64,000 nt of DNA from an uncultured Spirochaetota bacterium (GCA_963734545.1 CAVTHO010000003.1:224001-288000), one strand, 5' to 3'. Counted from the stretch's first letter, positions 23,145 through 37,795 are shown. Translations and numbers: made by a program. The notes: generated by a model not told the origin, from the sequence alone.

Positions 23145-25427
23145 CTATTCGATTTCCAGAATGAAAAGAGCGTGGTGACCCTCTTTGTCGTCATTCCATT
23201 TCAATGGGTTTCGAAGGTATCGATTTCTGCTGTCCTGCCAGATCAGGGCATAATCCTCAACGCCACCGGCATTGTCAGGCTGATTCACATCCCAATAGGT
23301 AAAATCCGATTTCTCGCCCGTTACCCACTTCCACCCCCGATTCTCATCGGTAAATCCGATCCAGATGTCATCCAGAATGTTTTTCGGTTTTATCGCCTGC
23401 ATCAATGCCTTGTTTTCGGAATCCGAAGTGATGGTGACGAGATGCCCGCCGTTTTTTGCACAGAGGGAAAAGGCGTCTTTCCATGCGAGGCTGCTTTTCG
23501 AAAGGAAGTATTGATGCCCTTCGAAAGCGGCCAGAAAAACAAACTGATCTTCCGGCAATTTGATTTTCTGTATGGGTTCAACAAGCGGCGCACTGCCGGC
23601 CGCCGCGGCTGCCGGGGCTGGAGGTATGAGATCATTCTCCGCGAAGGTGAAAGAGCCAACTTCAGTTTTCCGCAGGTCATTGAAGATATTCGCGTTGCCC
23701 GTCGACTTCTCCCGCGAAGAAGAGCTTGTTGTCGTCCACCCGTATGCTCTCCAGAGCCTCGTGGGCCCCAGGTCGCCAAGACGGCTCTTGATCAAGGCGA
23801 ATGGAACGGCTATTTCAACGGAAGACCCTTTCATGACATATTGTTCCATAATTTCTATTGTCCGAAAGACTGTCTTCTCCCAGACACCAATGAGAACTTG
23901 CCACTTATAGGGGTGACGATCCCAATGCAGTATCCCCACGGAAACATTGTGTTGGCTCTCGCCGGTGTCTATGCTGATGCCGTAGAACGGATTGCCAGGG
24001 TTTTCACTGAAATTGTGAGCATGAAGAAAGGAGCTTGGAGTTTTGTCCGCAATATCAAGCTTGATGCAGAAGCTTTCTGCATCGACAGCCACGCATACCT
24101 TGCTGATGCTCATTTTGTCTGTCGCATCCTGAGAGCCGACTGCTACGGGAGGGACATTCCCCCAATCATCGAAATTCCCATCGATCTTGATCGACGCTTT
24201 GGGCAATGGGGCCCCATTCAGCAGGCTTGAGGGCGGCAGCGTGTTCTTCGCGGCCGCAACAGAAGGAGTCTGACCGGCTTCCGTAGGGAGGTTCTTCGAA
24301 ACCGCTTTTGCGGAACGGCTGAATTCCACGGCTGATGTTTTTCCCATCTTGATCGCGACGGTCTGAGCTGCTTTTTCGCCATCCTCATAGAGCATGACCA
24401 TTTCATGAGGCCCCGCAGCGAGGTTTTCTATTGTCGCGAAAGACCCCACGGGAACCTGCCCCTGCGAGATCCCATCCAGGAACAGCGTCCCGATTGCGTC
24501 GGTCTCCACGGTGGCCGTTCCATATGCCTTTGACACCTTCACTTTGGGGGAGAGCCCTTCTTCACCGGAGGGGTTCTTCGCCGCCAATGCGTGACCGCCA
24601 TCGCTCCTCAGAAACAAGAGGAAGCTCGATCCTTCCTGGTGACCTGAATCTTTCAGGTCCCCGAACAGAGGGGTGGTTTTTGTCACGCCCAGCCGAATCT
24701 GGTTGTAGAGCATGAGCGGGTCCAGATAGGGAGAAGTGTTCCCCTCGAGGGCAAGCTTGAGCTGGCGGATGAAGGGGGACTCGTCGGGAACGGACTCGGA
24801 GGATCCTGAAGTGAGCACCTGCCGCGAGATTCTGGCATATGCATTCTTGAAATACTCGTTTGTGATCGCAGGGGCCATCCCGCGAGTCGGATTCAGGAAA
24901 TCTCCCGAGAAACACGCATCAGCGATCAGCGCGACATGACGGGCCTTCATGTTGCCGATGAACCCTCGAATCTGTGCGTTGGGAAGCCAGTTCGCCTGCG
25001 CGTAGACGTCCGTGCCTCCATCGACAGGGATCCAGAAGCCGGTATTGGACGTTCTGTCCAGCTGCCCGTGTCCCGCGTAGAATATCAGGATGGAATCTTC
25101 AGGCCGCGTGTCTTTGATCAGCCTGTCAAAAAGCTTGATGATGCCGGCTTTTGTCGCCGCTCCGTCATAGAGTTCCATGAAGTCGCTGACGTAGTATCTT
25201 CGGAAAAGGATGTCCTTGATTTCTTTCGCATCCTTGACGGGATTCCGAAGGGCCATCCACGAATCATACTTGTCGATGGCGATCAGCACCGCATACTGCC
25301 TCCCCACAACCGCCGTTTCGCCTTCGAGCTGGCTCACCACGGTTTTCAGGCCGCGAAGATCCGTGTTTTGAGCGAAGAGGGGGAGAGCCAGGAGCGGAAG
25401 GAAGACAAGGGAAAACGATTTTTTCAT
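23145..25427 (-). CDS. Secreted caspase-family (C14) peptidase with PEGA-like, putative carbohydrate-binding and C-type lectin domains
   Basis: Signal peptide; YAGHG and DACFSG His-Cys dyad; IKIDGNFDDW; GGHLVTITS, WIGFTD, QPDN and WND lectin motifs. Confidence 0.85.
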   Translation of the reverse strand: MKKSFSLVFLPLLALPLFAQNTDLRGLKTVVSQLEGETAVVGRQYAVLIAIDKYDSWMALRNPVKDAKEIKDILFRRYYVSDFMELYDGAATKAGIIKLFDRLIKDTRPEDSILIFYAGHGQLDRTSNTGFWIPVDGGTDVYAQANWLPNAQIRGFIGNMKARHVALIADACFSGDFLNPTRGMAPAITNEYFKNAYARISRQVLTSGSSESVPDESPFIRQLKLALEGNTSPYLDPLMLYNQIRLGVTKTTPLFGDLKDSGHQEGSSFLLFLRSDGGHALAAKNPSGEEGLSPKVKVSKAYGTATVETDAIGTLFLDGISQGQVPVGSFATIENLAAGPHEMVMLYEDGEKAAQTVAIKMGKTSAVEFSRSAKAVSKNLPTEAGQTPSVAAAKNTLPPSSLLNGAPLPKASIKIDGNFDDWGNVPPVAVGSQDATDKMSISKVCVAVDAESFCIKLDIADKTPSSFLHAHNFSENPGNPFYGISIDTGESQHNVSVGILHWDRHPYKWQVLIGVWEKTVFRTIEIMEQYVMKGSSVEIAVPFALIKSRLGDLGPTRLWRAYGWTTTSSSSREKSTGNANIFNDLRKTEVGSFTFAENDLIPPAPAAAAAGSAPLVEPIQKIKLPEDQFVFLAAFEGHQYFLSKSSLAWKDAFSLCAKNGGHLVTITSDSENKALMQAIKPKNILDDIWIGFTDENRGWKWVTGEKSDFTYWDVNQPDNAGGVEDYALIWQDSRNRYLRNPLKWNDDKEGHHALFILEIE

Positions 25428-28102: not shown

Positions 28103-28229
28103 GTGCAAAGCCCTCCTCGCATTCTGATATACCGCTCACGCGCGCAGTCGGCAATCGATGAATCCGGGAGGACCGGGCCTGGCAATTCCGCGCTTGATAG
28201 AAACGTCGAATAGTTATTCAAATAAAGCC

Positions 28230-29666
28230 ATGAAGACTCTTGGAATCGGACCCACCATCAGGAAACGTTCGACGCATCCCTACATCGGTCATGAGCCGGT
28301 TTCCACGCCTGAGCAGTCGCGCGAGGCGGTTGCGCTTCTGAACAAGGGGCGGGAGAACGGCCGGGCGGAGGCGGTGGAGGTCACGTACTGGTTCGAGGTG
28401 GTGCACGACGGAAAGCCGATGGCGGGCCTGGTGAACGCGGCCAGGATGGTGCTCGAGCACGGAACGCTCAAGCCGTGGCACCAGGAGGGGGATTCCGCCG
28501 TCCGCAAGCCGGATGGCTACGACGACTACATGAGCTGGGCCACCGACGTGCGCCTGCTGGGCTGGAACGGGACGGAGGGCATGGAGAGCGGGCTGGTGTC
28601 GATTGCCTATCCGTTGAGGTTTTTCGATACAAGGGACGACGGCGGGGTTCCCCTTGCGCCGCTGTTCATGGCCATGGCGAGCGAGCCGTTCTCGGCGTTC
28701 TCCTTCACGCAAGGGGCGCGCATCGTGGACGTCGCATTTCCGCCTGCCCTGCTCGCGCGCTTCCCCCGGCGGCCCTGGCCCCATTCACGAGTCCGCGAGT
28801 ACCTGGGGCTGCAGGCCGATGAGCCTGTCATCGGGACCATCGTGAAGCCCAAGACAGGGCTTACCCCCGAGCTGTTCTCCCGTTCGGTCGTGGAGGCCGC
28901 GCGCGCGGGTGCCCGTTTCACAAAGGCGGACGAGAACATGCATCTCACCCTCGCCGATGTTCCCCGGTTCGTCGGGCGCGTGGTGAAGGACCTCGAAGCG
29001 GCTGGATTCGACCTGGGAAAGTCCGCGTCCCACGGACGGCGGAGGTTCCTCTTCGCGCCTCACATCACGGCGGATGCCGACCGGATGCGCGACTATGCGC
29101 GGGCCGCGGTGGAAGCAGGGGCGAACGCGCTCATGTTCTCCCCCTACTACGGAGGCGGTTTCCCTCTCATGGCCGAAATCGTCGCGACGCACGACGTTCC
29201 CGTCTACGCGCACACGGCGGGCATGAACGTCGCCACGGGCTGCGCGACGTGGGGGCTGGACCCGCGCGTCACCTACTCCCTGGCCGCCCTGTACGGCGCC
29301 GCCTTCATGCAGCTCACCACAATGGGCGGCTACCTCAAGCCGGATGACACGGAGAAAGGGGTTGTTCTGGCCAAGCTGAAGGCTTTGGGGCTGGAGGGCG
29401 ATGCCGGAATGACGCTGGCCATTGCCGGAGGCCTGGGGCCGTCGAATATCGGGCGGAGCATGGAGCTCCTCGGCAGGGAGGGCCGGATGTTCCTGGCAGG
29501 CACGTCGGTCTACAGCCACCCGGACGGTCCTGCCGCAGGCGTGCGGGCGATCATCGCTGCCTATGCGGCATACACGAAAGAAGGGATCACCGACCCCGCG
29601 CAGCTCAGGCAATACGCGGCCGGGCGCGGGGCCGAGGGCAGGGATCTGATGCGGGCGCTGGGATGA
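28230..29666 (+). CDS. RuBisCO-like protein (form IV RLP), divergent
   Basis: GTIVKPKTGL, FTKADEN (K-x-D-E), VYAH, IAGGL, YSHPDGPAAGVRA; several carboxylase residues substituted. Confidence 0.88.
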   Translation: MKTLGIGPTIRKRSTHPYIGHEPVSTPEQSREAVALLNKGRENGRAEAVEVTYWFEVVHDGKPMAGLVNAARMVLEHGTLKPWHQEGDSAVRKPDGYDDYMSWATDVRLLGWNGTEGMESGLVSIAYPLRFFDTRDDGGVPLAPLFMAMASEPFSAFSFTQGARIVDVAFPPALLARFPRRPWPHSRVREYLGLQADEPVIGTIVKPKTGLTPELFSRSVVEAARAGARFTKADENMHLTLADVPRFVGRVVKDLEAAGFDLGKSASHGRRRFLFAPHITADADRMRDYARAAVEAGANALMFSPYYGGGFPLMAEIVATHDVPVYAHTAGMNVATGCATWGLDPRVTYSLAALYGAAFMQLTTMGGYLKPDDTEKGVVLAKLKALGLEGDAGMTLAIAGGLGPSNIGRSMELLGREGRMFLAGTSVYSHPDGPAAGVRAIIAAYAAYTKEGITDPAQLRQYAAGRGAEGRDLMRALG

Positions 29667-29704
29667 GCGGACGCCCGGGAACGCCTGAAAAGAGAGAAAG
29701 GCGC

Positions 29705-30655
29705 ATGCCGGACCCCATCGATATCCTGGGGCTCGGCGCCGTCGCGGTCGACGATATTCTCTTCCTGGAGGAGTTCCCGAAGCCTGACGGCAAGTATCGG
29801 GTGATCAGCCGGGAACGACATCCAGGCGGGCTCACGGGTACCGCGCTGGTGGCCGGTTCCCGGCTGGGCAGCCGCTGCGCGTACGCGGGCACGCTGGGCT
29901 CTGACGAGCTCTCGAATTTCGTCAGGGAGAGCCTGTCCGCGGAGGGAGTGTCCGTGGAGCACGTGGTCAGGCAGGAGGGGGCGCTGCCTTTCCGATCGAC
30001 GATAGTGGAAGACAGGGGAGGGAAGACGCGCACCATCCTCTGGGACGCATCCGATGCCATCGGCGCGCACGACTCGCTCCCTGATGAGCGGCTCATCCGA
30101 AGGGCCCGCGTGCTGTTCGTCGACCACGTGGGCGTTGCCGGAATGCTCCGCGCGGCCCGAATCGCCCGGGAGGCCGGAATCCCCGTCGTGGGAGACTTCG
30201 AAGTGCGGCATCCCGCGCCTTTCGACGAGCTCGTCGCCCTGGCAGACCATCTCATTCTTTCGCGGGAATTCGCGGCCGAGCTGACTGGTTCCGTGGACGC
30301 GCGGGCCGCGGCCGAGGCGCTCTGGGATGGCGCTTCTCGCGCGGCAGTGGTCGTGACCATGGGAGCCGAGGGCGCATGGTTCGTGTCGAAGGACCAGCCG
30401 GGAAAGACGCGCTTTCAGCCCGCTTTTGTCGTGGAAGTCGTCGACACGAACGGATGCGGCGACGTGTTTCATGGCGCCTACGCTTCGTGTCTTGTCCGGG
30501 GAATGCCCATGGCCGAGAGGGTGCGGTTTGCCGCGGCAACGGCGGCAATCAAGGCGACCTGCGTGGGCGGCCAGAAGGGCATCCCCACGAGGGGGGAGGT
30601 GGAGCGGTTCCTGCGGGCGCGCAGCAGCGAGGCCCGGAGCTCGGAGGAACCATAG
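29705..30655 (+). CDS. PfkB-family carbohydrate kinase (sulfofructose-kinase-like)
   Basis: GLGAVAVD, PGGLTGTA, VVTMGAEG and VVDTNGCGDVFHGAY; alternative ATG at 29663 overlaps the RLP stop. Confidence 0.9.
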   Translation: MPDPIDILGLGAVAVDDILFLEEFPKPDGKYRVISRERHPGGLTGTALVAGSRLGSRCAYAGTLGSDELSNFVRESLSAEGVSVEHVVRQEGALPFRSTIVEDRGGKTRTILWDASDAIGAHDSLPDERLIRRARVLFVDHVGVAGMLRAARIAREAGIPVVGDFEVRHPAPFDELVALADHLILSREFAAELTGSVDARAAAEALWDGASRAAVVVTMGAEGAWFVSKDQPGKTRFQPAFVVEVVDTNGCGDVFHGAYASCLVRGMPMAERVRFAAATAAIKATCVGGQKGIPTRGEVERFLRARSSEARSSEEP

Positions 30656-30746
30656 TCGAGGATCCTCCGCCCGGTTCAGCAGGGCAGCGCGGATCGTTCC
30701 GGCCCGCTGCTTGTTGCGCATTGAGAGTGCCGCTATAATTCGGCGC

Positions 30747-32904
30747 ATGCCGCCCATCATCCGGATGTCTCGCGCCGTGACTGCCCTTATCGTGCTCATG
30801 ACAGCGGCCGCGGGACACGCTGCCGGAGACGCACCCTCGCTTCAGGCCGGCACGATCCAGGTGAGCGACGCGGATCTGAGGAAGACAATCGATCTGGCGG
30901 GCGAATGGGAGCTGTACTGGGGAAGGCTCCTCGACCCGGGGGACTTCAGCGACGGGCTCCCGGCAGGCGGCGGCGCGCCCTGGATCATTCGCGTTCCGAC
31001 ATCCTGGAACGACGTGAGCAACGGCTTCCCGGGAACCGGCTCCGCTACCTATCGCCTTCTCGTGAAGCTGCCGGAGACGACCACGGAGCCCCTGGGACTC
31101 TATCTGAAGAACATCGCCACCGCCTATCGCCTCTTCTGCAACGGCATGCTGATCGCGGAAAACGGCACGGTGTCTTCCCGCATCGACCAGATCCGCGGCA
31201 CGTATGCCGCGCGGACGGTTTTTTTCACGGCACAGGGAAGGCTCGAGATCGTTCTGCAGGTCAGCAACGCGGAGGAAGTCAAGGCAGGCGTGAACACCCC
31301 GCCCCGTCTCGGCTACCAGTCGGCAATCGCGCCCGTGGGAGCATGGGAGATGATTCTCGACGCCATCATCTACGCATTCGTTCTCGCCATGGGCCTCTAC
31401 CACATCCTTCTCTCCATCATCCACCCCGAGGAGAAAGCGTCTCTCTACTTCGGCCTGCTCGCCGTGGACCTCGCGCTGCGCGGCGCGCTGACCGGCTCGC
31501 GGCTCCTCCACCAGTTCGCGGGAAGCTTTGGCTTCCACACCCTCATTGCCCGCGGAGTTCATCACCGTCTACGTGGCAGGGGCCCTCATCTTCCTCTGCT
31601 TCCACCACCTGTTTCCCCGGGAGAGCCCCCATGCGGCACGGATCCCCGTTCTCGCCGTCAGCGGCGCCTACAGCCTTTTCGCCATTCTCGCGCCCATCCG
31701 TGCCATCGTGGCGGTGCACCTCTACTACGAGCTGTTCCTGCTCGCCGAGGGCGTGCTTCTCCTGGTGTGGCTCATCCGGTCCCTCGTTGCGCACCGCGAG
31801 GGCTCGGTTCTCATGCTGGCGGGACTTGTCATCATGCTCGGCGGCGCAACCTACGACATCATCATCGACCAGCTCCACACCTTCGGCATTTTCGTTACCT
31901 CCTATGCCGTGGTGGTATTCATCTTCCTCCAGTCAGCCCTGATCGCGCGGCGGTACGCGCGGGCTTTCACCTCTGCCCGGGACAATCTGAAGATCTCCGA
32001 GGGGCTCGCCTCGGGCTACAGCCGGTTCGTGCCCCGCGAGTTCCTGAGCCTCCTGGGAAAGGAGTCGATCATGAACGTGGAGCTCGGCGATCAGATCGAG
32101 ATGAATCTCACGGTCCTGTTCGCCGACATCCGCGCGTTCACCGCCCTCTCCGAGAAGATGACCCCGAGGGAGAATTTCAACTTCCTCAACTCCTTTCTCA
32201 GCAGGATCTCTCCCGTCATCCGGCGCAACAATGGCTTCATCGACAAGTACATGGGAGACGGCATCATGGCGCTGTTCCCGCGCGCGCCTGACGACGCGCT
32301 CCACGCCGGGGTGGAGCTGCTGGAGACGGTGCGGCTGTTCAACCGGCATCGGGCCAACTCGGGCTACCAGCCCATCTTCATCGGGGTCGGGATCAATTGC
32401 GGCAGGCTCATGCTCGGCACGGTGGGCGAGGCGTCCCGAATGGAAGGCACCGTCATCTCCGACGTGGTGAACCTCACCTCGCGCCTGCAGGGCCTCACGA
32501 GATTGTACGGCCCCAACATCATCGTGAGCAATCATCTGATTGAATCCTGCCCGGAAACCGCCGGCTATCCGCGGCGCTATCTCGGCAGCGCTCCCGTCAG
32601 GGGGAAATCCGAGGTCGTGGCATTGTACGAGATCATCGACGTGGTGGACGAAAGCCGCGTCCGCACGAGCCGGCGCTTCGAGACGGCCGTCCTGAGCTTC
32701 GAGCAGGAGCGGTACCCCGAGGCAGCGGCGGGATTCCGGGCGGTCCTCGCGGAAGATCCCGCCGACGTGGCGGCCCGTCACTATATCGATCGCCTGCTGG
32801 ACATCGCCCGCGCAAGAAGCGGGCGCCCCCGGCGCGTGGGAGTTCAGGGCGGCCGGCTGATCCACCCTGTGCGGCCGCGCGGCCGGTCTCGATTGTCGGA
32901 TTGA
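30747..32904 (+). CDS. 7TM-DISM sensor class III adenylate/guanylate cyclase (frameshift near 31550)
   Basis: DLAGEWELYW and VPTSWN extracellular domain, 7TM region, TVLFADIRAFT, IDKYMGDGIMALF, TVISDVVNLTSRL. Confidence 0.88.
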
Positions 32905-32929: not shown

Positions 32930-34429
32930 CTATCTCCGATTTGCCCTGAAAAGGTCCGCGTACAACTGCTCATATGTGCCGAGGAGATCCCGGTAGAGCG
33001 CACTGCGCGCCTGGTCGGGTTCCTGCTTCCCTGCAAGATCGACAAGAGCGGTGGACTCTTCGAGGCTCCTGATGGCGCCGAGCGCGCGCAGGCCGAGGAG
33101 CACGCCGCCCCACGCGGCGGCTTCAGGCACGCGCGGCAGCCAGAGGGTTCTTCCGAAGAAGTCGGCCACGATCTGCAGCCAGGCAGGCGACTTCAGAATT
33201 CCACCGGTGACGACGAGATCGAGCTCCGAGTCCGGCACCAGCATTCGATAGACGGAGTAGAGATTATACGCGAGCCCTTCCATGAGAGCACGCACAAGGT
33301 GCGCGCGGGTGTGGCTGAAGGTGAGTCCGTACAGGGCGCCCCGGGCCTGCGGTCGATAGTGGGGGCACCTTTCGCCGCCCAAGAGGGGAATGAAACAGAG
33401 ACCCTCGGCTCCGACCGGGATCTCCGCGGAAAGGCTGTTCATCAGGCTGAAGACATCCTCGCCTTCTCCTGCCGGCGGCATCAGGGTGTCTGCGAACCAG
33501 CGAAGGGCGTTTCCCGCATCGTGGAGGACGCCGCCGAGAAGCCAGTTGCCCTCCGCGAGGTAGTAGCACCACGCCTCGGTCCCCGGCAGGATTCCGGGGG
33601 AGGGGAGACGCCTGCGCAGCGCGGCCCCGGTGCCGACTGTGAGGCTCATCCTTGTCTCTGCCAACCCGGCGCTTCCGAGGTGCGAGTGGGCCCCATCAGC
33701 GGCGCCAATGACGCACGGGGTGCCTTCGCGCAGCCCGAGCCGGGAAGCAGGCTCCCGCCTCAGCCCCGGGAGAACGAGGGTCGGCTCAACGCATTCGGAA
33801 AAACGGTCCGGCCCAAGGCCGACTTCGGAGAGCAGGCCGGCATCCCAATCCAGGGTGCTCATGTTCAACAGCCCGGTGCCTGACGCAATGGAAAGGTCCA
33901 CCTTGCGCGCGCCGAACAGGCGCTGAATGACATACTCCTTGATCGAGACAAACCTGTCGGCGCGCTTGAACACCTCGGGCGCTTCCTCGCGCATCCACGC
34001 AAGGCGGGAAGGGAAATACATCGGGTGCAGAGAGCAGCCTGTCCGCCGCTTGACGTCCTCCGTGTCGAGGCGCTCCCTGAGCCGCTCGTTCTGCGGGAGG
34101 GACCGGGTATCCGCCCAGATCGAGGCGCGCGAAAGAGCCACTCCGTCACGGTCAACCGGCACCATGCTCTGCCACACCCCGTCGAATACGATTGCATCGA
34201 TCTCACCCGGTGATATGCGGGAGCTCTCCACGAGGCGGCGGATTGCGCGCCCCACTGCCGCCAGGACCTCTTCCGGGTCCTGCTCGACGCAGCCGGGTCC
34301 GGGGTACACCGTGTCGTAGGGCTCGGTTTCCAGCCCGTCGACACCTGATTCCTGCCGATACAGGACTGCTTTCGTGCTCGTTGTACCGATGTCAACGGAA
34401 ATGAGCCGGATGCCTTTCTTGCTGCGCAT
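32930..34429 (-). CDS. gntK: FGGY-family sugar kinase, gluconokinase-like
   Basis: VDIGTTSTKA, VEQDPEE, IWADTRS, SIKEY, DLSIASGTGL, GERCPHY. Confidence 0.8.
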   Translation of the reverse strand: MRSKKGIRLISVDIGTTSTKAVLYRQESGVDGLETEPYDTVYPGPGCVEQDPEEVLAAVGRAIRRLVESSRISPGEIDAIVFDGVWQSMVPVDRDGVALSRASIWADTRSLPQNERLRERLDTEDVKRRTGCSLHPMYFPSRLAWMREEAPEVFKRADRFVSIKEYVIQRLFGARKVDLSIASGTGLLNMSTLDWDAGLLSEVGLGPDRFSECVEPTLVLPGLRREPASRLGLREGTPCVIGAADGAHSHLGSAGLAETRMSLTVGTGAALRRRLPSPGILPGTEAWCYYLAEGNWLLGGVLHDAGNALRWFADTLMPPAGEGEDVFSLMNSLSAEIPVGAEGLCFIPLLGGERCPHYRPQARGALYGLTFSHTRAHLVRALMEGLAYNLYSVYRMLVPDSELDLVVTGGILKSPAWLQIVADFFGRTLWLPRVPEAAAWGGVLLGLRALGAIRSLEESTALVDLAGKQEPDQARSALYRDLLGTYEQLYADLFRANRR

Positions 34430-34452
34430 AAGGTGGTTCCCGGGCTTCTCGC

Positions 34453-35484
34453 CTACGGCTCCAGGATGACCTTCATGAGACCGGGCTCCTCCCGGTAGAG
34501 CCTGTCGAACCAGGCTGCGCCCTCGGAGAGTGGGGCGCGGGCGCTGATGAATGACTCCACGTTCACGCGCCCGCGCGCGATCAGGTCGAGGCTGGCCGGG
34601 TATTCCCCCTGGGAGGCGCAGGAACCGAGAAGAGAGAGCTGGCGGGTAACGACCGTCTGGAGACCGAGCTCGATCCGGGGCGAGAGGTTGCCCACCAGGA
34701 CCACCCTTCCCCCCATGCGTACCGCGCTCAGGGCGCTGCCCACCGCCGCGCTGATCCCGACTGCTTCCAGGGCAAAGTCCGCGCCCCGGCCTTCCGTCCT
34801 CTGGAGCACCTGCTGCACCGATTCCGGTGAACGGGAGTCGAGACCCACATCCGCTCCGAGCTCGCGGGCCCGGCGCAGCTTGTCCGGGTCGATGTCGAAT
34901 GCCGCGATCGTGCCGCATCCCGATGCCCGCAGGACCTGGATGATGAGGAGACCGATCATCCCGGCCCCGACGACGACCGCGCACTCGCCCACCTCGGGAC
35001 GGGCCAGGCGCACCGCGTGGAAGGCGACGGCCAGCGGCTCGGTCATCGCCGCGTGAGCGAACGAGACTTCGGCCGGGATCCGGCAGAGGATGTGCGCGGG
35101 CACGGCAACGTACTGGGCAAAGGCCCCATTGCGCCGATAGTCTGCGCATGATACGCCGAGCACCCTGCGGCGCTCGCAGAGGTTGATCTCTCCCCTGCGG
35201 CAGCGCCAGCACTCACCGCACCAGATGGTGGAATCGAAGGTGACCCGGTCTCCGACGCTCCACCCCTTCACGCGCGCGCCGGTCTCTGCGATTGTCCCGG
35301 ACGCTTCGTGGCCCATGATGACAGGTGGGAGCCGGCGGCCTGTCGAGCCGTCCATTCCATGTACGTCGCTGCCGCAGATTCCGCACGCCTTGACCGCGAC
35401 CCGCACCTCGTTCTCCTCGATCTGCGGGTCAGGCACGTCACCATACACGAGCTTGCCGTACTCCTGCAGTGTCAACGCCTTCAT
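34453..35484 (-). CDS. Zn-dependent polyol/sugar-acid dehydrogenase (MDR; galactitol-1-P or L-idonate dehydrogenase-like)
   Basis: CGICGSD, GHEASG, CGECWRCRRGEINLC, GAGMIG; ATGA overlap with the upstream SDR. Confidence 0.9.
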   Translation of the reverse strand: MKALTLQEYGKLVYGDVPDPQIEENEVRVAVKACGICGSDVHGMDGSTGRRLPPVIMGHEASGTIAETGARVKGWSVGDRVTFDSTIWCGECWRCRRGEINLCERRRVLGVSCADYRRNGAFAQYVAVPAHILCRIPAEVSFAHAAMTEPLAVAFHAVRLARPEVGECAVVVGAGMIGLLIIQVLRASGCGTIAAFDIDPDKLRRARELGADVGLDSRSPESVQQVLQRTEGRGADFALEAVGISAAVGSALSAVRMGGRVVLVGNLSPRIELGLQTVVTRQLSLLGSCASQGEYPASLDLIARGRVNVESFISARAPLSEGAAWFDRLYREEPGLMKVILEP

Positions 35485-36275
35485 GTCGTTCCTTTTCGAG
35501 GGAGTGCCCTGATGGCGCCCACGGACAGCCCGCCGTCCACGAGGATGGTCTGTCCCGTCAGGTAGCGGCTTTCCTCCGAGGCAAGGAAGAGCGCCGCGCC
35601 GTCCAGGTCGTTCGGGGCGCCCGGCCGTCCGAGCGGGATCCTCTCGGAGAGGTACTCCACCCAGCCCGGATCCTCGTACAGGGCCGCGTTCTGCGCCGTC
35701 TTGAACCACCCGGGGGCGAGGCAGTTCACCGTGATTCCGTACTCGCCCCAGTCGTGCGCAAGGCTCATCGTGAGCTGTCGGATGCCCCCGCGGCTGGCCC
35801 CGTACGGGCCCAGACCCGCGTAGCCGGCCACGGATGTCTCGGAGCCGATGTTGATGATGCGGCCGTAGCGCGCTTCGATCATGAACCGGGCGATGGCCTG
35901 GGCCACGAAAAACGTCCCTCTCAGGTTCGTGTCCAGGATCAGGTTCCAGTCCTCCCACGTGACATCGACCGCCCGCTTTCGCACGTTGCACCCCGCGTTG
36001 TTGATCAGGATATCGATCTTTCCGAACGCCTTCTTCGCGGCAGCGGCCATGCGCTGAATGCTCTCGTAGTCACGCACGTCGAGCTCGACGGGAACTGCCC
36101 TGCGGCCGATCTCCTCGATCTCCCGGGCAAAGGCCGCCAGAGTGTCGATGTGCCGGCTCGTGATGATCAGGTCCGCACCGGCCCGGGCCAGCGCCCGGCC
36201 GAAGTACTGACCGAGCCCGCGGCTCGTCCCTGTCACCAGTGCAACTTTTCCTGAAAGATCGAACGGCCGGGCCAT
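35481..36275 (-). CDS. SDR oxidoreductase, gluconate 5-dehydrogenase/KduD-like
   Basis: TGTSRGLG, NNAG, NCLAPGWFKT, GQTILVDGG; catalytic motif reads YGASR. Confidence 0.88.
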   Translation of the reverse strand: MARPFDLSGKVALVTGTSRGLGQYFGRALARAGADLIITSRHIDTLAAFAREIEEIGRRAVPVELDVRDYESIQRMAAAAKKAFGKIDILINNAGCNVRKRAVDVTWEDWNLILDTNLRGTFFVAQAIARFMIEARYGRIINIGSETSVAGYAGLGPYGASRGGIRQLTMSLAHDWGEYGITVNCLAPGWFKTAQNAALYEDPGWVEYLSERIPLGRPGAPNDLDGAALFLASEESRYLTGQTILVDGGLSVGAIRALPRKGTT

Positions 36276-36376
36276 TTCGCGTGCCTCCCTCATGGTGCCG
36301 GGCATGATATGCCCAGTCAGGATATATCGCAAGACGACGGGCTGCCGAATGCCGGGCGGCGAGGCCGGGGCGGTCG

Positions 36377-37795
36377 TCAGACCACAAGGACAATCTGGAT
36401 GTCGCAGACGTTGGTCCCTGTCGGCCCCGTGATGAACAGGCCGTCAAGCCGTTTCAGAAGGGTATGGGAATCGTTTTGTCGGAGGGAGTCCTGGACGCTC
36501 AGACCCGCTGCCCGCGCAGCCTCGACAAACGACGCACGGGCAAACCCGCCCGCCGCATTTGTGGGCCCATCCTCGCCGTCCGTGGAGAAGGAGAGGACGT
36601 ACGTCCCGGAAAGCAGGGCGGGCTCCTTTTCCATCTCCTGGAGGAATGCGACGGCCAGCTCCTGGTTTCTTCCCCCCTTTCCATGGCCTCTCAGCGTGAC
36701 GGTCGTCTCTCCGCCGGCGAGTATGCAGGCCGGCCGCGCGCGGGGCAGGCCCGAGGCTGCCACGTCCGCCGCCACCGCGGCAAGCAGCCGGGCGGCTTCG
36801 CGCGCCTCGCCTGTCATGCGGGAGGTGAGGATGAGGGTGTTGTAGCCGAGCCGCCTGGCCTCGTCGTCGGCGCTTTTCAGCGCGAGGAGGTTCGTGCCGA
36901 CCAGGACGTGGGATGCCGTGGAGAGCTCCGGCGTCCCGGGCTTTGGCGTCTCCGGGATCCTTCCCGCGGCGCCGTCCCTGAGCACCTTCAGGACCGGCGT
37001 CGGGAGCGTGGAGTCGATCCCGTAGCGGGTGATGATCGACAGGGCGCGCTCGTAGGTGGTCGAGTCGGGAAAGGTCGGCCCCGAAGCGATTGTCTGCAGG
37101 TCATCGCCCACGACGTCGGACAGCACGAGGCTGACAGATGTGGCAGGAGCAATACGCCGCGCGAGCCTGCCCCCGGCAAGGAGAAGGAGATGCTTGCGGA
37201 TGCAGTTCATCTCGTCGATGGCCGCGCCGCAGGCCAGAAGCTGTCGGGTGGTCTCCTGGATGTCCGCCAGAGTGATGCCCGCGTTCCCCTGGCCCAGGGG
37301 CGCGGCAAGGAGGGAGGAGCCGCCGCCTGAGATGAGAACTATCACGAGGGTGGATTCGTCTGCCTCATCCGCAAGGGCGGCGATCTCGGCTGCCGCCCGC
37401 ACGCTGTTCTCATCCGGAACAGGATGCCCTCCCGGAACCGTGCGGATCCGCCGCAGCCCGCCGACGTACCCGACGGACGGGGTACTCCCCGAACGGGTAC
37501 TCCCGTACCCGGCGGATTGGCGCTGCTCATGTCCCGGTTTCACGACGATCAGGCCCCTGTCGATCCGTGTTCCGAGCGTCTCCTCGACGGCCCGGGCCAT
37601 GGGTCCGGCCGCCTTGCCGAAACCCATCACGAAGATCTTCCGGAACCGGGCAAGATCGAAATCCTGCCGCGCGTTTCCCGCCTGCACGCGCAGCGCCCCG
37701 TCGTCGATGCGGACGCTCCTGGCGACGATTGCGTACGGATCCGCCGCCTCCAGGGACGCCTGGGCGATCCGCCGCAGGTCTTTCACCGGATCCAT
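36377..37795 (-). CDS. Glycerate kinase type 2 (DUF4147/MOFRL)
   Basis: GFGKAA, GHPVPDENS, LISGGGSSL, SDVVGDDLQTIASGPT, GGETTV, GGRNQE, TGTNVCD. Confidence 0.92.
   Translation of the reverse strand: MDPVKDLRRIAQASLEAADPYAIVARSVRIDDGALRVQAGNARQDFDLARFRKIFVMGFGKAAGPMARAVEETLGTRIDRGLIVVKPGHEQRQSAGYGSTRSGSTPSVGYVGGLRRIRTVPGGHPVPDENSVRAAAEIAALADEADESTLVIVLISGGGSSLLAAPLGQGNAGITLADIQETTRQLLACGAAIDEMNCIRKHLLLLAGGRLARRIAPATSVSLVLSDVVGDDLQTIASGPTFPDSTTYERALSIITRYGIDSTLPTPVLKVLRDGAAGRIPETPKPGTPELSTASHVLVGTNLLALKSADDEARRLGYNTLILTSRMTGEAREAARLLAAVAADVAASGLPRARPACILAGGETTVTLRGHGKGGRNQELAVAFLQEMEKEPALLSGTYVLSFSTDGEDGPTNAAGGFARASFVEAARAAGLSVQDSLRQNDSHTLLKRLDGLFITGPTGTNVCDIQIVLVV

Follow-up and report, generated by a model that had tools for sequence, protein, structure and literature searches.

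We describe a pair of genes in an uncultured Spirochaetota bacterium (GCA_963734545.1) whose assembly comprises 5.14 Mb in 10 contigs and is 89% complete. The pair lies in a stretch of 64,000 nucleotides (CAVTHO010000003.1:224001–288000; C3:224001–288000 in our contig numbering) that was analyzed as a whole and is called the window below; coordinates count from its first letter unless a contig is named. The first gene (28230–29666, plus strand, 478 amino acids) encodes a RuBisCO-like protein (RLP), recognized by a PF00016 match (79.1 bits over residues 189–462, cut-off 30.1), by its homologues, and by its AlphaFold2 fold; it is the only PF00016 gene of the assembly. The second (29663–30655, plus strand, 330 amino acids) encodes a PfkB-family sugar kinase (PF00294, 147.3 bits, cut-off 25.8). 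We propose that the RLP is without CO2-fixing ability, that it probably rearranges a phosphorylated keto-sugar, and that it likely marks an undescribed enzyme reaction.

The two genes are closely joined. As the initial annotation had read from the sequence, the RLP stop codon (TGA, 29664–29666) shares an ATGA with the kinase start (29663–29666), and the same overlap is present at locus L001, from the nearest relative of the window's genome; a second in-frame start of the kinase, ATG at 29705, is possible. The RLP start at 28230 (MKTLGIG...) is matched by many homologues of 478 amino acids, and the earlier start of a longer open reading frame (28158–29666) had no homologue support. Ratios of nonsynonymous to synonymous substitution rates (dN/dS) against L001 and L094 were 0.12 for the RLP and 0.20–0.21 for PfkB. 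The segment 28230–30655 is a two-gene operon under purifying selection. Going by gene positions only, its promoter region would be the intergenic segment 28109–28229, which it shares with a divergent DUF2277 gene; a scan of this segment gave no sigma-70 consensus site. The promoter/terminator scan gave no promoter-like sites and two terminator-like sites, both within coding sequence (mean of shuffles 2.0).

Active site and relatives of the RuBisCO-like protein

Active-site residues were checked twice, in a HMMER alignment to the RuBisCO of Thermococcus kodakarensis bound to 2-carboxyarabinitol 1,5-bisphosphate (CABP) and in a MAFFT alignment of 86 sequences, among them 20 rows of the RLP family and 13 of archaeal form III, the latter with a complete catalytic set. 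Aligned columns are named by what we take to be their spinach numbers. Both alignments reproduced the retained residues listed in the initial annotation, and all of these are kept in 20/20 family rows: K175 and K177 correspond to K206 and K208 (K206-P-K208, 28845–28853, aligned to the KPK of T. kodakarensis), the predicted carbamate lysine K201 and Mg2+ ligands D203 and E204 to K232, D234, and E235 in a KADE motif (28923–28934), and H294 to H328. The four reported replacements were likewise reproduced, and a fifth was added. R295 is T329, next to H328 (29211–29216; T in 19/20 family rows, C in one); H327 is Q361 (Q in 20/20); the carboxylation lysine K334 of loop 6 is Y368, in GGYL (29325–29336; Y in 19/20, F in one); S379 is A399 (A in 20/20); and N123 is E152 (E in 19/20, D in one). 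These five residues (N123, R295, H327, K334, and S379), which belong to the catalytic and substrate-binding set of a bona fide RuBisCO, are all replaced.

Two further motifs came out differently. The change of GGG to GTS was not borne out, as the aligned column reads A423-G424-T425 with S426 as an additional residue. The exchange of ESSTGTW for EHGTLKPW followed by an insertion was upheld as to the motif: residues 76–83 (E76-H-G-T-L-K81-P-W83, 28455–28478), in the N-domain at the place of RuBisCO E60...W66, align to the archaeal form III E..GTW, with K81 in 18/20 and W83 in 19/20 family rows. The insertion is not unique to the family. The stretch from this W to the AYP proline spans 40–44 residues in the family compared with 26–32 in 11 of the 13 archaeal form III rows, but 41–47 in MtnW and 49–56 in DUF1537-linked RLPs. 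An N-terminal extension is a further feature of the family, with 63–103 residues ahead of the E60 column versus 23–53 in form III; it contains an invariant H-P-Y motif.

The AlphaFold2 model of the RLP (predicted local distance difference test, pLDDT, 87.2; predicted template modeling score, pTM, 0.87) has the complete large-subunit fold with N-domain and TIM barrel, and template modeling (TM) scores of 0.70–0.74 to RuBisCO and RLP structures. In a fold search, form III RuBisCOs and solved RLPs scored alike (TM 0.65–0.74, 19–23% identity), and the types are not separable on this scale. Family membership would lead one to expect a homodimer. PF00016 and the fold together place the protein in the RuBisCO superfamily. 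Judged by alignment, it retains the carbamate-lysine/Mg2+ site (the carbamylation itself being predicted) together with K206, K208, and H328, and has lost both the distal-phosphate residues that bind ribulose-1,5-bisphosphate (R295T, H327Q, and S379A) and the residue for CO2 addition (K334Y).

By sequence comparison, the RLP is an enzyme-like member of a rare, isolated, and uncharacterized clade of the superfamily. Pairwise identity within the family is 44–92%, and no other sequence aligned exceeds about 29% identity to a member. A word-index search returned 256 proteins, of which the 120 listed are 58–92% identical to the window's RLP; the named members among them are from metagenome-assembled genomes (MAGs) of Kiritimatiellae, Verrucomicrobia, Lentisphaerae, Omnitrophota, Clostridia, and Spirochaetia. 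In a set with one genome per species (185,579 species) we found 33 family loci (45–92% identity), all in MAGs; the next matches were archaeal, at 24–31%. When 1.84 billion representatives were searched with a profile, full-length family clusters scored 816, 510, and 503 bits and the matches after them ≤179 bits; ten of these nearest outsiders were likewise below every NCBIfam cut-off. An ESM Atlas search with the RLP returned generic RuBisCO clusters only. The family is confined to uncultured-genome assemblies (Spirochaetota, Kiritimatiellota, Lentisphaerota, Omnitrophota, Clostridia, and others) and therefore has probably escaped surveys of cultured genomes.

The initial annotation had proposed a divergent RLP of an uncharacterized clade, and the missed model cut-offs, the tree, and an unmatched active-site pattern all support this. 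The highest NCBIfam scores of the RLP were to RuBisCO models, though far under their cut-offs (TIGR03326, NF003252, and NF010002: 89, 89, and 68.4 bits vs. 497, 438, and 489). Scores to the MtnW models TIGR03332 and NF007095 (PRK09549) were 36 and 61.8 bits (cut-offs 513.6 and 409), and the OiaX model NF042437 gave 79.4 bits (cut-off 700). The solved RLPs of Chlorobium tepidum and Rhodopseudomonas palustris matched at E-values of only 1e-11 to 1e-12. We inferred a quick maximum-likelihood tree from the 86 rows, after removal of two truncated archaeal rows; the references sampled were other than R. rubrum, C. tepidum, and hamamelose-type RLPs. The 20 family rows formed a clade with 100% support, whose stem measured 1.38 changes per column, apart from four MtnW rows (all over the TIGR03332 cut-off), from the archaeal form III rows, and from eight DUF1537-linked plasmid RLPs (one annotated OiaX), which formed their own clade with 98% support. 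Tight clustering with MtnW or with apionate-pathway RLPs, and an active site shared with them, were thus seen neither in the tree nor in the alignment. The sister of the family, with 95% support, was a group of five unnamed proteins of 467–476 amino acids, a pairing that is unsure with both branches long. This possible sister group (P0155, P0156, P0168, P0171, and P0192) has R295N, H327Q, and S379A, and one of its clusters includes a protein of a Sedimentisphaerales MAG.

A literature search by titles and the starts of abstracts, with supplements and several key RLP papers outside its reach, gave no description of the RLP clade or of an RLP–PfkB pair. A 2026 rubisco survey collapsed RLPs as an outgroup (PMC13454268).

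The kinase, its linkage to the RuBisCO-like protein, and the wider module

The profile match and the conserved aspartate of the GxGD motif (G-C-G-D267, aligned to D244 of YihV) place the second protein among the PfkB carbohydrate kinases. Its best solved match is the Escherichia coli sulfofructose kinase YihV (7ag6, E-value 1.2e-38, nearly full length), with ribokinases and ketohexokinases next; the 53 solved matches at E ≤ 1e-5 include no protein named 6-phosphofructokinase-2 or tagatose-6-phosphate kinase. It scored below the cut-offs of the ribokinase models NF008353 and TIGR02152 (128 and 121.3 bits vs. 341 and 299.65), and 91.8 bits on the model for ATP-dependent ribose-1-phosphate kinase. 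The label sulfofructose-kinase-like from the initial annotation holds for overall similarity, with YihV as the best solved match, but not for the sulfonate site. The sulfonate triad of YihV is K27-R138-N109 (PMC8006165); by hand mapping on the structure-match alignment these positions are K44-V156-L126 in the window's PfkB, one of three being kept, and they vary among the partner PfkBs. By this test the kinase is not a sulfofructose kinase, and this candidate was rejected. A phosphosugar kinase of the 1-phosphofructokinase or tagatose-6-phosphate kinase type was judged unlikely (TIGR03168, 47.8 bits vs. a cut-off of 216, and no such solved match). PfkB appears to be a ribokinase/YihV-type kinase of free sugars.

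The linkage survey took in the window together with 33 genome and 80 metagenome loci (114 in all). An RLP hit was obtained in 112 of these, and linkage was scored with a hidden Markov model (HMM) built from ten partner PfkBs. PfkB was found within 6 kb of the RLP in 26/112 loci, and in 17/112 it lay no more than 200 bp away in the same orientation; where each flank reached at least 5 kb (22 loci), the counts were 12/22 and 7/22. Adjacency occurs in the window's own subclade (window, L001, and L094; 92% RLP identity), in a deep subclade at 44–47% identity (L145, L147, L151, L152, L154–L157, and L159), and in loci of Spirochaetales, Aerophobetes, and Clostridia. PfkB is the commonest directly adjacent gene of the RLP and is not universal. 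The linkage is real but partial, which qualifies the conserved synteny expected at the outset: the pair recurs in distant subclades and several phyla, yet in only a minority of loci.

Neighboring genes, found by conservation-weighted gene calling and clustering, outline a wider set of carbohydrate enzymes. Within 6 kb of the RLP the 112 loci encode a mannitol-1-phosphate-5-dehydrogenase-like protein (25 loci; best solved match MtlD, 3h2z), a URO-D/MtaA-like protein (25), PfkB (23 by clustering, 26 with the HMM), the alpha and beta subunits of a thiamine pyrophosphate (TPP)-dependent E1 (14 and 17), a GmhA-like SIS protein (15), a class II ketose-bisphosphate aldolase (13), a class I phosphomannose isomerase (PMI; 12; TIGR00218, 133 bits, cut-off 116), a Gfo/Idh/MocA oxidoreductase (11), a GatZ-like protein (11), a uronate-isomerase-like protein of 443 amino acids without a Pfam family (9), and an FGGY kinase (6). 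Genes of GH4, GH30, and esterase families are found in some RLP loci, and no DUF1537 family was among the annotated representatives of RLP neighbors. The conserved wider module consists of the uronate-isomerase-like protein, PfkB, the mannitol-1-phosphate-dehydrogenase-like enzyme, and the class I PMI.

The 443-residue protein has an N-terminal HxH motif. Its model (pLDDT 85.6) best matches the uncharacterized amidohydrolase 4i6v (TM 0.80), with uronate isomerases next (TM 0.75–0.76). A role as an Amidohydrolase_2-type lactonase was set aside, with uronate isomerases matching over the whole length and the COG3618 amidohydrolase 4dlf at TM 0.32. A natural fusion of 896 amino acids carries the isomerase-like protein at the N-terminus of an RLP. 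The RLP part is 58% identical to the window's, and the isomerase-like part is 46–51% identical to three stand-alone representatives; the fusion is represented by two sequences (P0272 and P0273), on four and three contigs of up to 48 kb.

Two other partner sets were noted. The URO-D/MtaA-like proteins are often multi-copy beside the RLP (L015, L019, L010, L018, L145–L161, and others), and demethylation of methylated sugars is one idea for them. In loci of Omnitrophota, Ratteibacteria, and related groups (L011, L018, L020, L026, L095, L127, L150, L170, and others), the RLP is flanked by the GmhA-like SIS protein and E1 alpha/beta, with no E2 or E3 seen nearby; this set is unlike that of the Spirochaetota.

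We searched 60 relatives for the RLP and the module genes. The RLP was present in 10/60, made up of 8/20 other genomes of the genus and 2/2 of a second genus, and was found in 0/36 genomes from seven other families of the order. The isomerase-like gene was also found in 10/60, eight of these with the RLP. The mannitol-1-phosphate-dehydrogenase-like gene occurred in 8/60, all eight with both the RLP and the isomerase-like gene, and in 0/50 RLP-negative genomes. A PfkB orthologue (51–86% identical) was more widespread, with 21/60 relatives and 16/20 other genomes of the genus. Sister genomes of the window's carry two operons: one with the dehydrogenase-like, PMI, and RLP genes, and a second with the isomerase-like gene followed by an overlapping PfkB, flanked by an isoamylase-like gene and an HD-domain gene. 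PfkB stands alone at this isoamylase-like/HD site in RLP-free genomes. In the window's genome this site is empty, with the isoamylase-like and HD genes immediately adjoining, and the only PfkB orthologue is the one that overlaps the RLP stop. The window's lineage has kept only the RLP and PfkB of the module, and PfkB has moved from its ancestral locus to the RLP. The dN/dS values of both genes indicate that this reduced pair is maintained by selection, and relocation together with purifying selection argues for a real functional link in this lineage.

Elsewhere the window's genome encodes a canonical UxaC (612 bits), a ManA-type isomerase, and a stand-alone MtnA (G000 C9:172017–173024; 388 bits, cut-off 279) flanked by genes for glycine C-acetyltransferase and an acyl-CoA ligase and by bacillithiol genes. 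Its isoamylase-like gene (G000 C5:518375–520512) matches the sister homologue in six consecutive pieces at 80–85% identity. This suggests several frameshifts, and indel errors may be common in the assembly; neither the RLP gene nor the PfkB gene is disrupted.

The window is G+C-rich (58–69% in 2-kb steps). As initially stated, no mtn genes adjoin the RLP in the window annotation. Upstream, on the opposite strand, are genes for DUF2277, a PrsW protease, and an aldo-keto reductase. Downstream lies a 7TMR-DISM adenylate/guanylate cyclase gene (30749–32904, plus strand), which is split over three frames relative to an intact L001 homologue of 650 amino acids; the frame changes fall near 31030 and at 31500–31550, and real breaks and assembly indels are both possible. 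A TTGCGC-N17-TATAAT stretch is found at about 30714–30742, just 5′ of the cyclase gene. The cyclase gene is followed by a convergent block of sugar-acid type (32930–37795, minus strand), comprising an FGGY kinase (best model gluconokinase, 353 bits, under its cut-off), a Zn-dependent dehydrogenase (best model scyllo-inosose 3-dehydrogenase IolM, under its cut-off), and a DUF4147/MOFRL protein, of the glycerate 2-kinase family. Farther upstream, an open reading frame of 760 amino acids (23145–25427, minus strand) has a C-terminal C-type lectin domain (PF00059, 47.6 bits), which is unusual in bacteria.

Possible reactions of the pair

Ketohexokinase makes fructose 1-phosphate. The product of YihV is sulfofructose 1-phosphate (PMC8006165). 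As these nearest solved relatives act on C1, PfkB would phosphorylate a ketose or keto-sugar acid at the primary hydroxyl beside the carbonyl. Such a ketose 1-phosphate is the kind of substrate that RLPs use, with a single phosphate beside a carbonyl. The RLP would bind the single phosphate in the retained backbone P1 pocket (A399-G-G and A423-G) and abstract the C3 proton to give a Mg2+-bound enediolate, the intermediate that all characterized RLPs form before they differ in the next step (PMC10176493). Reprotonation would yield an isomer or epimer, by carbonyl shift or C3 inversion, that could enter the ordinary sugar-phosphate pool. In other organisms the partner with the uronate-isomerase fold probably makes the ketose. 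We put the probability that the RLP is such an isomerase or epimerase, acting by Mg-dependent enolization and reprotonation on a keto-sugar monophosphate made by PfkB, at about one half.

More tentatively, the reaction of the clade might be new to the superfamily: it is possible, though somewhat doubtful, that the carbonyl of a kinase-made ketose or keto-uronate 1-phosphate travels down the carbon chain, whether or not CO2 is lost on the way, to give directly a central pentulose or hexulose phosphate. If true, this would define, with the uronate-isomerase-fold partner, an undescribed short route of sugar or uronate breakdown in anaerobic Spirochaetota, bacteria of the Planctomycetes–Verrucomicrobia–Chlamydiae (PVC) group, Omnitrophota, and Clostridia.

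Several observations weigh against the isomerase or epimerase proposal. Its substrate, its product, and the order of kinase then RLP are all inferred, and the isomerase–RLP fusion suggests consecutive steps, which fits poorly with a kinase step between them. PfkB orthologues were found in 13 related genomes in which the RLP was not found, so that the kinase also serves independently of the RLP. The isomerase-like and dehydrogenase-like genes were not found in the window's genome (89% complete) or in its nearest relative (G269, the genome of L001, in the same genus; 74%), nor was the module's PMI-like gene in a search that covered the window's genome; the pathway there may therefore be incomplete. 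PfkB is not near the RLP in 10/22 long-flank loci, and the partner PfkBs of L015, L019, and L128 look like a different PfkB subtype. The loci from the genome and metagenome collections are not all independent; several pairs clearly represent one sequence drawn twice, and at least L012/L114, L018/L129, L020/L132, and L004/L102 share identical layouts. Finally, the tree was made by a quick method, and the family clade sits on a long branch.

The alternative that survives best, which we nonetheless consider rather unlikely, takes the RLP for an OiaX-like β-keto-acid decarboxylase. Its substrate would be a phosphorylated keto-uronate or keto-aldonate (fructuronate or tagaturonate from UxaC), whose carbonyl would be shifted to the position β to the carboxylate, releasing CO2 and a pentulose 5-phosphate. 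This would suit a fused or adjoining partner with a uronate-isomerase fold, the combination of a mannitol-dehydrogenase-family enzyme and a PfkB (families of the hexuronate pathway), and the GH4, GH30, and esterase genes at some loci. The substrate of YihV is a fructose with an anionic C6 group, the canonical UxaC in the genome would leave only kinase and RLP to be added to reach the pentose-phosphate pool, and decarboxylation by RLPs is already on record (PMC10176493). However, the two residues with which YihV holds the anion are V156 and L126 in PfkB, and OiaX keeps R295 and K334, both of which the RLP family is without. The dehydrogenase-like and PMI partners would be left without an obvious role, and our literature search gave no dehydratase-free hexuronate route of this kind.

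It is unlikely that PfkB and the RLP became neighbors through rearrangement and share no substrate, PfkB being a general kinase of the genus and the RLP acting with other enzymes or being a pathway remnant. The wider occurrence of PfkB in the genus (16/20 vs. 8/20 for the RLP), its solitary position at a conserved locus in RLP-free genomes, and the three other module genes not found in the window's genome would all agree with this. Against it stand the start/stop codon overlap in both the window and L001, the rise of the same adjacency in distant subclades and phyla, and purifying selection on both genes since the rearrangement; moreover, the PfkB of sister genomes is translationally coupled to the isomerase-like gene, which is itself found fused to the RLP.

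A role in 5-methylthioribose or 5-deoxyribose salvage, in which the RLP would isomerize 5-methylthio- or 5-deoxy-ribulose 1-phosphate as in Rhodospirillum rubrum, seems very improbable. In its favor, the stand-alone MtnA of the genome has no salvage genes as neighbors, the site at which YihV binds sulfonate is hydrophobic in the window's kinase, and isomerization by carbonyl shift is a known RLP reaction (PMC10176493). Nevertheless, the window has no mtn gene near the RLP, the recurrent neighbors over the 112 loci are carbohydrate enzymes, and the RLP is patchy within the genus. A true CO2-fixing RuBisCO with PfkB as a ribose-1-phosphate kinase, as in the archaeal pentose-bisphosphate pathway, can be practically dismissed and is close to refuted by the residue test: K175, K177, K201, D203, E204, and H294 are kept, and RuBisCO models and the ribose-1-phosphate kinase model do score, but R295, H327, K334, S379, and N123 are replaced family-wide, 89 bits compares with cut-offs of 438 and 497, and the window annotation shows no gene for a ribose-1,5-bisphosphate isomerase next to the RLP.

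Comparison with known systems

Each newly solved RLP has revealed a new pathway and a new use of enediolate chemistry, which is thought to be the origin of CO2 fixation. The known reactions are few: enolase, isomerase, decarboxylase/transcarboxylase, and oxygenase (PMC10176493). The present clade stands out by its sharp separation, by an acidic residue at the N123 position, and by keeping K177 while having lost K334 and the distal phosphate site. Its small and defined partner set, which includes a natural fusion, makes a biochemical assignment testable with two or three recombinant proteins.

Archaeal form III RuBisCOs are the best sequence and fold matches of the window's RLP (22–27% identity), and both have K177. 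They differ in the five replaced catalytic and binding residues and in the N-terminal extension and longer N-domain loop of the RLP family. MtnW, the 2,3-diketo-5-methylthiopentyl-1-phosphate enolase, has in common the RuBisCO fold, the Mg2+/carbamate site, and a single-phosphate substrate (proposed in the case of the window's RLP), but is only 20–22% identical, lies in a separate clade, and is poorly matched by its model (TIGR03332, 36 bits vs. 513.6). It has K at N123 in 4/4 rows, a lysine that serves as the general base, where the window's RLP has E152, as well as M or V at K177, P at R295, L at H327, and S at K334.

The R. rubrum RLP, a 5-methylthio-D-ribulose-1-phosphate isomerase, is our proposed working model by likeness of reaction. 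In this "DeepYkr"-type RLP, a ketose 1-phosphate with a single phosphate is reportedly enolized and reprotonated with its carbonyl moved; the isomerase reaction as such is described in PMC10176493. It differs in context, as no methionine-salvage genes are near the window's RLP and the partners are sugar enzymes. On the kinase side, YihV shares the GxGD aspartate with the window's PfkB and is set apart by its triad (K27-R138-N109 vs. K44-V156-L126).

The closest parallel in gene layout is OiaX/OiaT with OiaK, from the catabolism of D-apionate and related sugar acids. There, as in the window, the RLP gene is followed directly by that of a kinase of its substrate (a putative one in the window), often with overlapping stop and start codons (8/8 plasmid loci retrieved), and both RLPs have a carbohydrate-catabolic context and a Mg2+/carbamate site. 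The kinase, however, is DUF1537 in the one and PfkB in the other. R295 and K334 are present in the OiaX-type rows and K177 is missing from them, the reverse of the window's family; the two are 22–23% identical and fall in separate clades. An RLP followed by a kinase is thus a layout already known; the novelty lies in the RLP clade with its pattern of residues, in the family of the kinase, and in the set of partners.

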